Of a stretch of 64,000 nucleotides of DNA, positions 50,383 to 56,121 are shown piece after piece. Source of the DNA: Gammaproteobacteria bacterium (GTDB lineage Bacteria; Pseudomonadota; Gammaproteobacteria; Eutrophobiales; Eutrophobiaceae); the NCBI GenBank assembly GCA_965205405.1, contig OZ242169.1, positions 333,826 through 397,825 of the forward strand, written 5' to 3'. Each line of letters begins with the position of its first letter. The stretch's first letter is position 1. The notes below the pieces were generated by a model. The model was not told the origin of the DNA and searched no databases. It was given only the letters and a program-made list of their open reading frames with translations. The position numbers were made by a program, and so were the translations under genes.

Positions 50383-53300
50383 TTACTCCATCCTGGCGGA
50401 AACGGCATGCTCGCCGTCAATATCGTTTACTTTCACCAGGATGGCAGCGGTTCCATTTTCGCTGGTTGCCAGGTCAGGTCCGATTAGCTCTAAACCTTCA
50501 GCAACGGAAAATCTGATGTGCCTGCCGGATACAGGAACAGTGACTCCTTTAGCGTCAACAATTTTGGCTTGGACAAACACCAGATCATTTTCAACAGGGT
50601 CAACACCCTGAGTCGCCAGATAGGTAATTACACCAGCCGGTTCACCGGGCGTCTGTACCGAGTGGCGCTTGATCTCCACGCCATCTTTGTAAGCAACAGC
50701 TTCCAGAGTACCCGGAATAAATCGTGAGGTTTCGAATGTAAACGGTGCATGGCGAAGATTTTTCGAGATACGATTGAGGTCAGGAGTACGGCGGCCGAGA
50801 CTTTCCCCATTGAGATACAGTTCGACTTCATCACCATTGGAAAAAACCCGCACTGAGCGCGGGGAGTCTGCGCGCCATTCGCTCGCAATATGGACGAAAG
50901 GACCCGAGGCGTAATGCGCAGATGATTCTTCGGCATCCCTCTGGCTGCGGAAAAAGTAGTAGGCAGGTTTTGCAATACGCTCAAGACTCATCAACCCGGA
51001 GGCCTCAAGATCATCGGCATAGCCCCGATTGTAATCGAACATGCCCCAATAACCGTCGGCGAAGGCAGGGGTTGACGGATTATCGTTATGGGCCTCCTGG
51101 ATATTGGTCGCCTGCTGCAGAAGCCTTACCTCTCCGTCCGAAAGAAGCTGCCGGCTGGTACGCTCCGCTGCCGACAGGTCTTCCCACGCATCCTGGTTGA
51201 TTCCGGCATTCTGGGCATAATATTCCCAATCGCCGTATTCCGACACGATATACGGCTTATCCGGAATTGGTCGCTCCGGATGAGGCAACCGATGCTGGCG
51301 GGCTTGAAGGTAGATATCATAACCCTCAGGCACCCAGCCGGCCGAATAGGCCTGATCACCCGGATACTCCTCATGGACGATCCCGTTCAGCGCGTCAACC
51401 AGTTCGGACGGCATCGGGCTTTCGTTCAGGGAACATTCCCAGGCGATGACGCTGGGATGGTTGCGGTCCCGCCTGATCAAGTCGCGGCAGGTCTGCTTGA
51501 CGTGCTCGGAGAAAGCCGGATCGGGATTATAGTACTGCCACCCGAGGATGGCATTCAGCACAACCAGGCCGAGTTCGTCTGCCGCGCGCATGAAATGACG
51601 CGAATGCGGGTAGTGTGAGAGTCGCACATAGTCGAAACCGGCTTCCTTGATAAGCTTGGCGTCCCGGTAATCCGCATTGGGAGAAAGCGCGTACCCCACA
51701 TAGGGGTATTCCTGGTGCCGGTTGACGCCGCGCAGAAACATCTTCTCACCATTAATTGAAAAACCATCCTTGCTGATCTCTATATGCCGGATGCCGATTT
51801 GCGTGGCGCGCTCATCAATGTCCTTATCCTCACTTACAAGCCTCGTGTTGAGGAGGTAGAGCGCCGGTGAGCGGGGCGACCAAAGCCTTGGGGAGTCTAC
51901 TTTGAGCAGCGCGGCATGTTGAATGTCTCCTTCAGGATCCAGCGTCATACTGTCCGATGTAAATGAAACCACCTGTTGATCAGCATCCATGAGCGTATGG
52001 ACAATAGTGAAACGGCGTGGGGTATCACCCCTGTTGGCTACATGGGTTTTTATCGATACCTCGGCGTTGTCCTGCGAGACACCGGGATAAGTGACATAAA
52101 TGCCACCGCCCGCCGGTCGGTCTGCCAGTATTTCGTCAGTGATATGCAGGCTGTCCCGGACAAAAAGCCGCACCTCCCGGTAAAGCCCGCCGTAATAATT
52201 AAAATCCAGCGACATCCAGCGGACGTCGGACTTGTTGCCGTTCTCCTGGGGGCGGGAGTAATCGATCCATTACGCATCGACCGTCCCCCGAAATAAGCCG
52301 ATGCGTTCAAATTTGCGGTCGGCATAAGTCGGGGTCGGTCCCCGTCCATACCAGTTCATCTGCTCATAGCCCGCGGGAATGATCAATTCGGTGCCGATAC
52401 GGTGTGGAAACCTCAAATCGGAGGGTGTCCGGCTTTTATCAAGATGGACTTCCACCCTGATGTCACCGTTTCCATGCACTGTGTAGCTGATACCGTAAGT
52501 TGCTTCCACGGTCGGCAGCCAGGCCGAAAATGCGATGCGCACGGCCTTGGCCCCAACTTCCTCGTCAGTCACTTCGACAGTTTGCCGGTTTGCCACGGCA
52601 GCGCGCCAGACGGAATGATATTTCCCCTGTTCGAGCGGGATTTTGTCATTGTCCGTATAGGCCCGCCAGAGGTCGAGTTGCGGTCCCTGTCGAATCACTA
52701 ACCTGCCTTGAAAGGTGTAGGAAAGCATGCGGCCTTCCGACTGGCTGAAAACCACCTCGAAATGGTCACCGGAAACTGTCACATGCTTGCCATCCTTCAC
52801 AACGGAGGGCCTGGACAGTGCCGCAACCGGCGCTTTTGGCGCAATCAAATCGTCGAATTCCTGAAGTGTGAACTGGGCGAAAGCCAATTCATGCCCGACG
52901 TCGACCAATGTGCTATATTCCTCTTTCGCCCTGAAACGTAGCGTCAACAGGTATTCCTTGCCTTCTTGCGGCGTAAACGATGGCAGACTAATTTGAACTT
53001 CCTTCTGCGTCCGGGGTGGAATATCCGGCGCTTCGAGTTGGCCCGATTTAAAATCATGTCCATTCTCGGTGATGTTCCATTCGGTCTCTGCCAGGTCCCT
53101 GAGGTTGGTAAAGTCAAACCGATTGTGGACAAAGAAACGTCCGGCTGCGGCGTCAATCGCGCTGACATGGATGTTACGATAGGTATATTTGATGGCAAAC
53201 AACCCGGGATGTGGTTTCCAGTCCGCAGCCAGCAGTCCGTTCATGCAAAAATTGCCGTCGTGATGACGATCCTGTTTATGCCAGCCGCCGTAGGCGAAAA

Positions 53301-54189
53301 AGTTGTCTTTAACCGGCCCCGAACCTATCCTGTGGCGGAAAGCAGCAGGAACCGGTGTGCGTAAACCCTGGTCCATCCAGTCCCAGACAAACGCGCCCAT
53401 ATGGCGCGGGGTCGGGTAAATGGTGTCTTCCCAGTATTCTTTCAGGTTCCCGTTGCTGTTGCCCATCGCATGTGTGTATTCACAAAGCACTGAGGGCTTG
53501 TCTGCGGGACCGACCCAACCGGGTTCCCGATACATGACTGAATATACATCCGAGGCCTTGTGCCGAGCGCCCCTTCGACTATCCCCTTCGTAATGGACGG
53601 GACGGGTGGGGTCCGTGTCTTTCAGGTAACGATAGGCCGTATCAAAGTTCGGACCGACCCCTGCCTCATTGCCAAGCGACCACATAATGACGGAGGGATG
53701 ATTTTTATCCCGCGCCTCCATGCGCGCGACACGATTCTTGTGTGCTGCCTCCCAGGCGGGATCATTGGCCAGCGTGTTCCCTGCATGGTTGCCGTAACCG
53801 TGGCTTTCAATATTCGCCTCATCCATCACCCAGATTCCATATTCGTCGCACAGGTCATAAAAAAGAGGCGTATTGGGATAGTGGCTTGTGCGAACCGCGT
53901 TAATATTATTTTCCTTGAACATTTTGATATCGCGTAGCATGGATGCGCGAGTGACCACGTGTCCTGTGTCCGGGTGGTGCTCGTGCCGGTTCACGCCTTT
54001 CATTTTCACCGGCGCGCCGTTGACGTGGAAAATCGCATTCCTGATATTCACTTCGCGGAACCCGACCTTCTGCGGGACGACTTCCAGCGTTTCGCCTTCT
54101 GCATCTTTCAAGGTCAGCAGCATGGAATAGAGATAAGGTGACTCATTGCTCCATTTACTCGGTCGACTTACCGGCAGATCAAATATCAA
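50383..54189 (-). pseudogene. Decayed tandem GH2 glycosidase locus: a LacZ-like β-galactosidase fragment (52270..54189) read through one TAA into a GusA-like GH2 enzyme (50383..52215)
   Basis: Both ORFs are in the same minus-strand frame and are separated only by the TAA at 52270-52272. The read-through (…WIDYSRPQENGNKSDVRWMSLDFNYYGGLYREV) is the end of GH2 domain 1. The upstream ORF starts near LacZ residue 290 and lacks its sugar-binding domain. Confidence 0.65.
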
Positions 54190-56121
54190 GTGAGCATCGA
54201 AGAATTCAAATCCAAGCCGGGCAATATCACGCTGAACTTCCAGGATACCGATATTCGCGAATTCATAAATGTAGTCATCAAGGACGTACTGAATGAGAAT
54301 TACCTCATTGATGGAAACGTGACCGGTAAAGTGACGATAGCCACCGCCAGGCCCATTCTTAAGGAAGGGTTGATGGCCTTAGTGGAAGAAATCCTTGCAA
54401 TGAATGGCGCTGCAATCACAAAGGAAAATGGTCTTTATCGGATCATGCCAAAAAGCCAGGCAATCAAAGGCAACCTGACTCCAAGTCTGTCGAAACGAAC
54501 CGCTGAGGGTTATTCGATCAGGATCATCCCACTGGAATTTATTGCCGCGCAGGAGATGCAAAAAATTCTTGAGCCTTTTCTGGCAGAAGGCAATGAACTT
54601 CGTATTGACAAGAAAAGGAACCTGGTGATTATATCCGGCAACGAACAGGAGATCACCACCATACAGGAAACCGTCGACGTTTTTGATGTGGATTGGTTGC
54701 GCGGCATGTCAGTAGGGCTTTATCCGCTGGACTACGTTGAACCGGAAAAACTGAAAGCTGAACTCGACTCGATCCTGGGTGCGCTAGAGGCGGATAGCAG
54801 CAAAGAATTGCTTGATGGGTTAATACGTATAGTGCCGATGGACCGCCTGCAATCCATCCTGTTGATCAGTTCAACGCCTGCCGCATTGCGAGAAGTTGCG
54901 ATTTGGGTACATCGATTGGACCGGCCGGGTAAATCAGTGGATAAACGTCTATATGTTTACGACGTACAAAATGCCAAAGCGACTGAGTTGGGAGAAATCC
55001 TGGGTCGCATCTTCGCTACAAAAACCGAATCGACTCCATCCCCGGACGGGGGTGTGCAACTCGCTCCGGGTTTGACCCCGGTTGAAATTACAGTCGAGGG
55101 CGGTGAAGCGGCTACCGGTGCAATGGCTGACGCCATTCAGGCTATCAGCCAGGCTGGTGGCGACGAAGGAGGCGGGATAGCCTTGCCTTCCGGCCAGTCA
55201 GTTGAGATCATTGCGGACGATGTGCGTAATGCGCTGGTAATACTGGCCACCCCGCAGGATTACAAGATGGTGGAAACAGCGCTTGCCAAGTTGGATGTGG
55301 TGCCGTTACAGGTATTGATTGAAGCCAGCATTATTGAAGTCAGCCTGAAAGACGACCTGAATTACGGAGTGGAGTGGTTTTTTAAAAATTCCATTGAACG
55401 CGGGAACGTCACTGAGGGACGCGGCACCCTGGACCTGGGTGACGTGGGCTTATCTGCGCTGAGCCCTTCTTTTTCCTATACGATTGTTGATAATGCTGAC
55501 CAAGTACGTCTCGCCTTGAACATCCTGGAGCAGGAATCGGAGGTGAATGTATTATCTTCTCCGTCGTTGATGGTACTGGATAACCAGACCGCGTTTATTA
55601 ACGTGGGAGATGAAATCCCCGTGCCTGCCCGCCAATCGGTCAGTAATATCAATCCTGCTTCACCGACTGTGAATGAAATCCGGTTCAGACAAACCGGTGT
55701 AACGCTCACTGTTACTCCACGCGTCAACAGCAGCGGGCTGGTGACGATGGAAATCAAGCAGGAAGTCAGTAATGCGGTCAGCACCACCTCATCGGATATT
55801 GATGCGCCCACGATTCAACAACGCCAGATTGAAAGCACCGTGGCGATTAACTCGGGTGAAACCATTGTATTAGGTGGACTGATTCAAGATACAAAGACCA
55901 ACGCGGAGAGCGGGATACCGATCCTGCACAGGATCCCGGTTATTGGCAAGTTGTTCGGCCAGACCCGGGATGAGGCACGGCGCACAGAACTGCTGATCAT
56001 GATTACCCCCAGGGTGATACGGAATCGTAATGAAGCAAAGGAAGTAACGGAAGAATTCAAGCGTAAACTCCGGGGTATCACGCCACCGACTCAAAAAAAT
56101 CAGGAAGAAGCGGCTTCGTGA
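54190..56121 (+). pseudogene. gspD: Type II secretion secretin (GspD family), 5'-truncated and orphan
   Basis: The N0 domain begins at the first codon (…EEFKSK…[18 protein letters not shown]…) and the secretin and S domains lie at the C-terminus. The frame is open only back to 54142, with no signal peptide. No gspC, E, F, G or other T2SS genes lie within 10 kb. Confidence 0.6.

Follow-up and report, generated by a model that had tools for sequence, protein, structure and literature searches.

Two in-frame glycoside hydrolase family 2 reading frames are very probably remnants of separate beta-galactosidase genes in a deletion allele of a galactan/galactose locus

What does it mean when two glycoside hydrolase family 2 (GH2) open reading frames (ORFs) lie in tandem, in the same frame and on either side of a single stop codon, each without its N-terminal domains? 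The question arises from a stretch of 64,000 nucleotides of contig OZ242169.1 (assembly GCA_965205405.1, Eutrophobiaceae, Gammaproteobacteria; hereafter, the window), where such a pair had been described from the sequence alone. Re-reading the sequence confirmed the description: ORF 52270..54189 (639 aa counted from a TTG) and ORF 50383..52215 (610 aa counted from an ATG) are both on the minus strand and in one frame, and 18 sense codons plus a TAA (52270-52272) lie between them. Our analysis indicates that they are, very probably, the remnants of two separate beta-galactosidase genes within a recent deletion allele of a galactan/galactose locus, that is, a case of ordinary gene loss.

The domain content of both ORFs is that of truncated enzymes. 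As the sequence-only reading had claimed, their N-terminal domains are absent, and a Pfam boundary check found Glyco_hydro_2_N in neither. In the 639-aa ORF, the GH2 immunoglobulin-like (Ig) domain is represented by profile positions 69-109 alone (its last 40 positions), followed by a complete TIM barrel (Glyco_hydro_2_C, profile 1-301 of 302, E 6.6e-89), LacZ_4 (domain 4) and positions 1-155 of the 248 of Bgal_small_N. Both the Glyco_hydro_2_N domain and the Ig-like domain 2, missing and incomplete here, respectively, are present in the orthologue P0001, the 1047-aa LacZ-type protein encoded on L001. Residues 29-1027 of P0001 align with residues 14-1008 of Escherichia coli LacZ (E 8e-161), and its score with NF052611 ('beta-galactosidase, LacZ type') is 1001 bits, barely over the 999-bit cut-off; almost all members of its protein cluster are 1034-1048 aa long. 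The remnant is 96-98.6% identical to residues 297-954 of these full-length orthologues (96% to P0001). By Pfam and orthologue alignment it occupies 52214..54195 on the minus strand, with codons Ala295-Met955 of 1047; it begins in the tail of domain 2, runs through the TIM barrel (with the two catalytic Glu motifs) and domain 4, and breaks off about 70% of the way into domain 5. Domain 1 and most of domain 2 went with codons 1-294, and the rest of domain 5 with codons 955-1047. Ala295 corresponds roughly to E. coli LacZ residue 280, and the start near residue 290 proposed earlier was thus about right. The barrel retains the WSLGNEAG motif and the second Glu motif (GNE and CEYTHAMGN), which in E. 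coli LacZ hold the catalytic glutamates; the motifs quoted earlier are indeed there, except that the wording of one of them (ILCEY...) differs from the sequence.

The 18 codons between the ORFs had been taken for the end of the sugar-binding domain of the second enzyme. Instead, the read-through peptide WIDYSRPQENGNKSDVRW matches Bgal_small_N positions 159-179 and is identical to residues 937-954 of intact orthologues (in P0001, '...TVDAQWIDYSRPQENGNKSDVRWMSLADESG'), so these codons continue LacZ domain 5. Including them, the match to Bgal_small_N extends over positions 1-179 of 248, with the TAA interrupting it after position 155.

The 610-aa ORF contains a GH2 Ig domain, a TIM barrel, DUF4982 and C5. 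It corresponds to a second GH2 gene of the DUF4982/C5 type, likely a beta-galactosidase, whose 5'-truncated remnant spans 50383..52205 (minus strand; residues ~178/180-786 of 786, plus the stop). A loss of about 150 aa had been attributed to the sugar-binding region; the loss is real, and amounts to 177 aa that include a lipoprotein-type signal peptide and nearly the whole sugar-binding domain. In the intact 786-aa protein of L003, Glyco_hydro_2_N is at residues 92-194 behind an N-terminal ...LLAIACGC signal. The earlier label 'GusA-like' is no better supported than GalA or GalB: the intact protein shares with GalA/GalB-like GH2 enzymes the domain order sugar-binding, Ig, TIM, DUF4982 and C5, the gene adjoins a family 53 (GH53) galactanase, and the best NCBIfam similarities are to GalB and GalA, with scores of ~290 bits against an equivalog cut-off of 900 that do not establish the substrate. 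The window copy differs from them in lacking residues 1-177. Many members of the protein cluster of this second GH2 are themselves fragments of 130-707 aa.

The sequence-only reading had proposed a comparison with the intact locus in relatives, and we found full-length syntenic genes in L001, L002, L003 and L087, in addition to a deleted copy (L004/L005). DNA identity to the window is 95-97% for L001, 74-87% for L002 and 99.89% for L003. L001 contains, in this order, a secretin (minus strand), the 1047-aa LacZ-type GH2, a 1218-aa autotransporter-like protein, the GH53 galactanase, the second GH2, ilvI, ilvH and ilvC. In L002 an intact 726-aa secretin is divergent from the LacZ-type gene, and in L003 a large ORF with a TonB-dependent receptor at its end precedes GH53, the full 786-aa second GH2 and ilvI. 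Except in the deleted copy, all relatives have two separate full-length GH2 genes, 3.5-10 kb apart. These relatives show that the ancestral locus had a gspD-type secretin gene divergent from the gene for a secreted 1047-aa LacZ-type GH2. Behind the latter came at least one gene for a large outer-membrane protein (autotransporter-like, joined in the closest strain by a TonB-dependent receptor), then those for a GH53 endo-galactanase and a 786-aa lipoprotein GH2, and finally ilvIH.

Using blastn and base-level comparison with the four intact relatives, we located two clean deletion junctions, in line with the earlier suggestion that the pattern fits deletions. Junction A (54195..54196) corresponds to L001 positions 8452 and 9838, and thus to a deletion of 1385 bp (L001 8453-9837) that takes secretin codons 1-85, the whole divergent intergenic/promoter region and LacZ codons 1-294. 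The two flanks share no bases at this point, i.e. there is no microhomology, and the junction is identical in L004/L005. The deletion therefore affects a third gene that had gone unnoticed, a gspD secretin head to head with the LacZ remnant (54196..56121, plus strand), which retains residues 86 to the end of the 726-aa orthologue and has lost its first 85 codons.

Junction B (microhomology at 52206..52222, minus strand; window compared with both L001 flanks and with L003, and identical in L005) has its crossover inside the exact 8-mer GTCGCTGG (52213-52206), within an imperfect repeat of 16/17 nucleotides. With a slash at the breakpoint, the LacZ flank reads CCGCTGGATGTCGCTGG/CAGACG and the flank in the second GH2 reads CCGCTGGA-GTCGCTGG/ATTTTA, and the window has CCGCTGGATGTCGCTGGATTTTA. 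In L001 coordinates the deletion is of 5658 bp, and LacZ codon 954 is now followed by codon 178 of the second GH2; the missing segment held LacZ codons 955-1047, the outer-membrane protein gene(s), GH53 and the first 177 codons of the second GH2. It would be larger when referred to L003, because the intervening ORF of this strain also holds the TonB-dependent receptor. Both genes read the repeat in one and the same phase, as Ser-Leu, and this puts the fusion in frame. Likewise, the ATG at 52215-52213 that had appeared as the start of the 610-aa ORF is the internal LacZ codon Met955, with no evident ribosome-binding site. We also considered a deletion mediated by an insertion sequence or transposon, which we rejected because there is no extra sequence at either junction. 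On the LacZ side of junction B, a terminator scan showed a possible 8-pair hairpin at 52228-52210 (minus strand; CGACGTCC-GCT-GGATGTCG), and its position beside the repeat could have favoured slippage.

The third lesion is the TAA at 52270..52272 (minus strand), which replaces Gln936 of the LacZ-type gene; the codon is CAA in L001. Within the motif TVDxQW(I/V)DYSRPQENG, Q occupies position 936 in most of the retrieved homologues and in all the close orthologues, and the TAA is also present in L005.

We found the truncated architecture in the window and in one other contig, ERZ25071132:ctg752577 (L004/L005; 21 kb, 3x), whose alignment to the window runs through both junctions for 14,060 bp at 99.89% identity, with 14 mismatches and one 1-bp gap. 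It contains identical junction sequences and the TAA, with differences of 1 aa in several products. A search with the exact IlvH protein of the window returned two contigs, this one (L004) and L003 (ERZ25069191:ctg574114), and the exact 280-aa SDR protein matched solely the ERZ25071132 contig. In the protein collection that holds ctg752577 there is no record identical to the exact 610-, 617-, 304- or 214-aa proteins of the window, which indicates a separate record as the source of the window. From 44001 to 52229 the window and L003 are 99.89% identical in DNA, and from there L003 continues into the intact GH2, GH53 and receptor genes; intact and deleted alleles thus coexist within one species-level population. 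The ERZ25071132 sample also contains, beside the 3x deletion contig, a 14x contig of 1.14 Mb of the same species. Furthermore, a contig of more than 1 Mb carries identical IlvH, IlvC and IlvD/Edd-family dehydratase (591 aa, 57018-58793). In a search with HslU, the labelled relatives were ~90% identical, and there were 3.5-Mb contigs with HslU at or near 100% identity. Among the GTDB representatives searched, no match to the full-length LacZ orthologue exceeded 51% identity.

These data bear on whether both junctions could be a chimeric join or collapse created during assembly of a genome with intact genes, as the sequence-only reading had contemplated. In favour of such an artefact, a 36-mer across junction B has no exact match in GTDB representative genomes or JGI metagenome contigs, and the sole other carrier is a 3x contig. 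Against this, a contig that was assembled separately shows the two junctions and the TAA, and yet differs from the window at 14 positions; the long near-identical sequence that a collapse should leave at the joined sites is absent, with 8 bp exact (16/17) at junction B and 0 bp at junction A, far too short for repeat collapse; the joined positions are non-homologous between the two GH2 genes; the remnant contains a nonsense mutation; and one long read would easily cover the 2 kb of LacZ sequence that separate the junctions. An assembly artefact is therefore very improbable. Unequal homologous recombination through RecA, acting on paralogous GH2 segments, would make the deletion one 'across paralogous GH2 genes' as first worded. 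It draws support from the fact that both partners at junction B are GH2 genes, but the breakpoint brings codon 954, in domain 5 of LacZ, next to codon 178, in domain 1 of the second GH2; the similarity there does not go beyond 16/17 nt, and the partner at junction A is an unrelated secretin gene. We consider this mechanism most improbable and the original wording misleading: B joins non-homologous positions through an 8-bp microhomology, and A joins LacZ to a secretin.

A functional product, either a GH2-GH2 fusion produced by stop-codon read-through or an N-terminally shortened glycosidase starting at the 610-aa ORF, would accord with the reading frames being in phase, the lack of frameshifts, the catalytic Glu motifs kept in both remnants and a ratio of nonsynonymous to synonymous substitution rates (dN/dS) below 1. 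However, the phase follows from that of the 8-bp repeat, the ATG is an internal LacZ codon, and the deletions took the promoter region together with the signal peptides and sugar-binding domains of both enzymes. The relatives of 1034-1048 aa and 786 aa are all separate full-length genes, and the low dN/dS reflects the history before the deletion, with a flank 99.9% identical to the intact allele. We also found neither a conserved arrangement nor a coherent downstream extension, as would be expected of a natural or read-through fusion; the TAA replaces a conserved Gln, and the arrangement is absent from the relatives with intact genes. We thus give very little credence to a functional product, and the read-through fusion suggested earlier is not supported. 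That the in-phase chimeric ORF might be expressed as a new GH2 protein we regard as extremely unlikely, and as far less likely than the ecological interpretation considered below.

Our preferred explanation of gene loss has some points against it. Both remnants keep their catalytic Glu motifs and are without frameshifts; the junctions are known from assembled contigs; ctg752577 is just 3x, and may come from the sample that also gave the window; of the closest intact allele, L003, the readable part is that to the right of junction B; no microhomology accounts for junction A; and the lack of function of the remnants is deduced from the sequence.

As to this last point, a working protein from any of the three is very unlikely. 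Start codon and signal peptide are missing from each of these genes, and the native promoter region is gone; promoter-like sites detected by a promoter scan of the region (7, against 5.6 +/- 2.5 expected) are not above chance. For the LacZ remnant, function is very unlikely because the parts of domains 1 and 5 that help build the active site and the tetramer are absent; the missing regions contain, by approximate mapping, Asp201 and Trp999, which contribute to the E. coli active site. For the second GH2 it is very unlikely because nearly the whole sugar-binding domain is absent. Close relatives have full-length syntenic orthologues of genes that are truncated in the window and bear a premature stop, as is typical of pseudogenes. 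On the other hand, comparison of the remnants with relatives gives a dN/dS of 0.16-0.20, much like that of neighbouring intact genes, which together with the absence of frameshifts and the intact Glu motifs indicates that the lesions are recent and the remnants barely decayed.

Comparison with the relatives shows three lesions: a blunt, microhomology-free deletion of 1.4 kb that took the 5' ends of the secretin and LacZ genes and their shared promoter region; a second deletion, of at least 5.7 kb, whose ends are two copies of GTCGCTGG lying in the same codon phase; and a C-to-T change that turned Gln936 into a TAA stop. Deletion B would have arisen by replication slippage or other RecA-independent illegitimate recombination at the short repeat, and the shared frame would be a one-in-three coincidence of repeat phase. 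These events were presumably recent, since the remnants still look like selected genes, and the cell would have lost galactan depolymerisation while keeping the galactose monomer catabolic genes next door. There are precedents for junction B: spontaneous deletions with junction microhomology of at least 8 bp were experimentally verified in Salmonella chemostat populations, from which a cut-off of 8 bp was deduced for true deletion junctions (PMC3411829). Junction B resembles these in its short direct repeats (8 bp exact, 16/17 extended), whereas junction A lacks microhomology, and the Salmonella deletions were seen in culture while the window allele is in natural metagenome assemblies. The feature is, very probably, an ordinary recent pseudogenisation, and not a new enzyme architecture, recoding event or system. 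It is, however, a base-resolved example of how polysaccharide degradation can be lost between 99.9%-identical strains through an 8-bp-repeat deletion, a blunt deletion and a nonsense mutation. In practical terms, the products called as 'glycoside hydrolase family 2' (617/639 and 610 aa) and 'GspD' (643 aa) should be flagged as pseudogene remnants.

Compared with E. coli LacZ (PDB 1DP0; NCBIfam NF052611, Bga2A type), full-length P0001 has the same five-domain Pfam architecture, but the E. coli enzyme is cytoplasmic and the intact orthologues here carry an N-terminal signal peptide; the window copy differs further by the missing codons 1-294 and 955-1047 and by the nonsense codon. The divergence of the LacZ remnant from L087 is unevenly distributed, with 2 mismatches over 52600-54195 (~1600 bp) and 21 in the last 400 bp (52206-52600). 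We rejected decay as the cause of this 5%-divergent stretch, because the substitutions are mostly synonymous; their pattern points to a mosaic produced by homologous recombination between strain alleles. In the LacZ cluster, the genes for P0134 (797 aa, from a 1.16-Mb contig) and P0128 (202 aa), in other strains, stop at about residue 787 or are broken near residue 846; they are possibly independent frameshift pseudogenes or sequencing errors.

The secretin was listed as ORF 54190..56121 (plus strand), called as a 643-aa 'GspD', although its GTG start (54190-54192) is antisense LacZ sequence. It shows N0, three Secretin_N and one Secretin domain in Pfam, and scores 467 bits against TIGR02517 (GspD; cut-off 351), in common with the secretin GspD of type II secretion. 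N0 begins at residue 15, leaving no room for a signal peptide; in the intact 726-aa secretin of L002, N0 starts at residue 98, after the N-terminus MQKRQFNLIFLSGLLVLTAGAC..., with a lipoprotein-like signal. The window copy therefore lacks the lipoprotein-type signal peptide, its own promoter and its own start codon. Lipoprotein 'liposecretins' of type II secretion exist, for instance HxcQ, and the intact relatives begin with a lipoprotein-like signal (...LTAGAC) that the window copy lost with its first 85 residues and promoter. Unlike in GspD systems, we saw no other gsp genes beside this secretin. In L002 (7713-9893) and L087 (1-147) the secretin N-terminus has the lipoprotein-like signal LLVLTAGAC and the gene, again without gsp neighbours, is divergent from the secreted LacZ-type gene; the protein is possibly a liposecretin that works on its own and serves just this glycan locus.

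The secretin of L001, the 95%-identical relative, is split into five ORFs (6507-8710, equivalent to about 54261-55853 of the window), with at least 14 mostly non-homopolymer indels with respect to the window, and none in the adjoining LacZ (1990 bp) or ilvIH (2324 bp). This looks like an independent pseudogenisation of the same secretin, with sequencing error at 9x coverage as a less probable alternative. The secretin ORF (ending at 56121) and the convergent gene for a 304-aa hypothetical protein (minus strand, ending at 56100) overlap at their 3' ends by 22 bp (56100-56121).

Between the LacZ-type gene and GH53 or the second GH2, close strains carry hypervariable cargo (L001, 12041-15697; L003, 1-4332; L002, 13235-22627; L087, 3620-8410). 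In L003 it includes a 2631-aa ORF in which an autotransporter-like beta-domain, 44% identical to that of L001, is joined to the TonB-dependent receptor; in L002 and L087, it contains a GH53-GH123 (family 123) fusion protein and a hemolysin-type calcium-binding protein.

Beyond the secretin, the region 56100..63881 contains retained and apparently intact galactose genes of the De Ley-Doudoroff type, with ORF lengths equal to those in relatives. Besides the 304-aa hypothetical protein, without any match in Pfam or NCBIfam, these databases identified an IlvD/Edd-family dehydratase, KDPGal aldolase, DgoK, an SDR sugar dehydrogenase, an SSF (sodium:solute) symporter and an SGL lactonase-like protein. 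The intactness of these adjacent genes indicates that the strain lost the part of the pathway that attacks polymers and oligomers and kept that for galactose catabolism. This situation recalls the alginate 'pioneers, harvesters, scavengers' of the Vibrionaceae, defined by differences in gene content among near-identical marine strains (PMC5036157), in that 99.9%-identical strains differ in polymer-attacking genes while monomer catabolism is kept; here, however, the difference is a fresh deletion with visible scars, and not gene transfer. As a speculative and rather doubtful extension, the deletion allele might mark a naturally maintained 'scavenger' ecotype, living on sugars released by co-occurring siblings with the intact locus. 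Were this true, the strain would have shed the secretin, LacZ-type enzyme, receptor/autotransporter, GH53 and lipoprotein GH2 and kept galactose uptake and De Ley-Doudoroff catabolism, and both the decay of the L001 secretin and the hypervariable LacZ-GH53 cargo would reflect ongoing selection on public-good production.

Finally, an intergenic hairpin element recurs many times in the window. It is ~85 bp long, is bounded by 25-bp terminal inverted repeats (ATATTTGGGGTCAGAGTAAAAATAC...) and has a folding energy of -38 kcal/mol, and none of its copies is at the deletion junctions. Copies of the element are at 942-1026, 22083-22167 and 32248-32330, and copies of its arms at 1849-1868, 2291-2378, 6537-6617, 12438-12488, 19772-19857, 34544-34679, 46640-46719, 47861-47878, 50205-50225 and 61276-61360. 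A copy 100% identical occurs in L089-L091 between an ATP-grasp gene and hslV, a site that has none in the window; the element thus behaves like a mobile element of the repetitive extragenic palindrome (REP) or miniature inverted-repeat transposable element (MITE) type.

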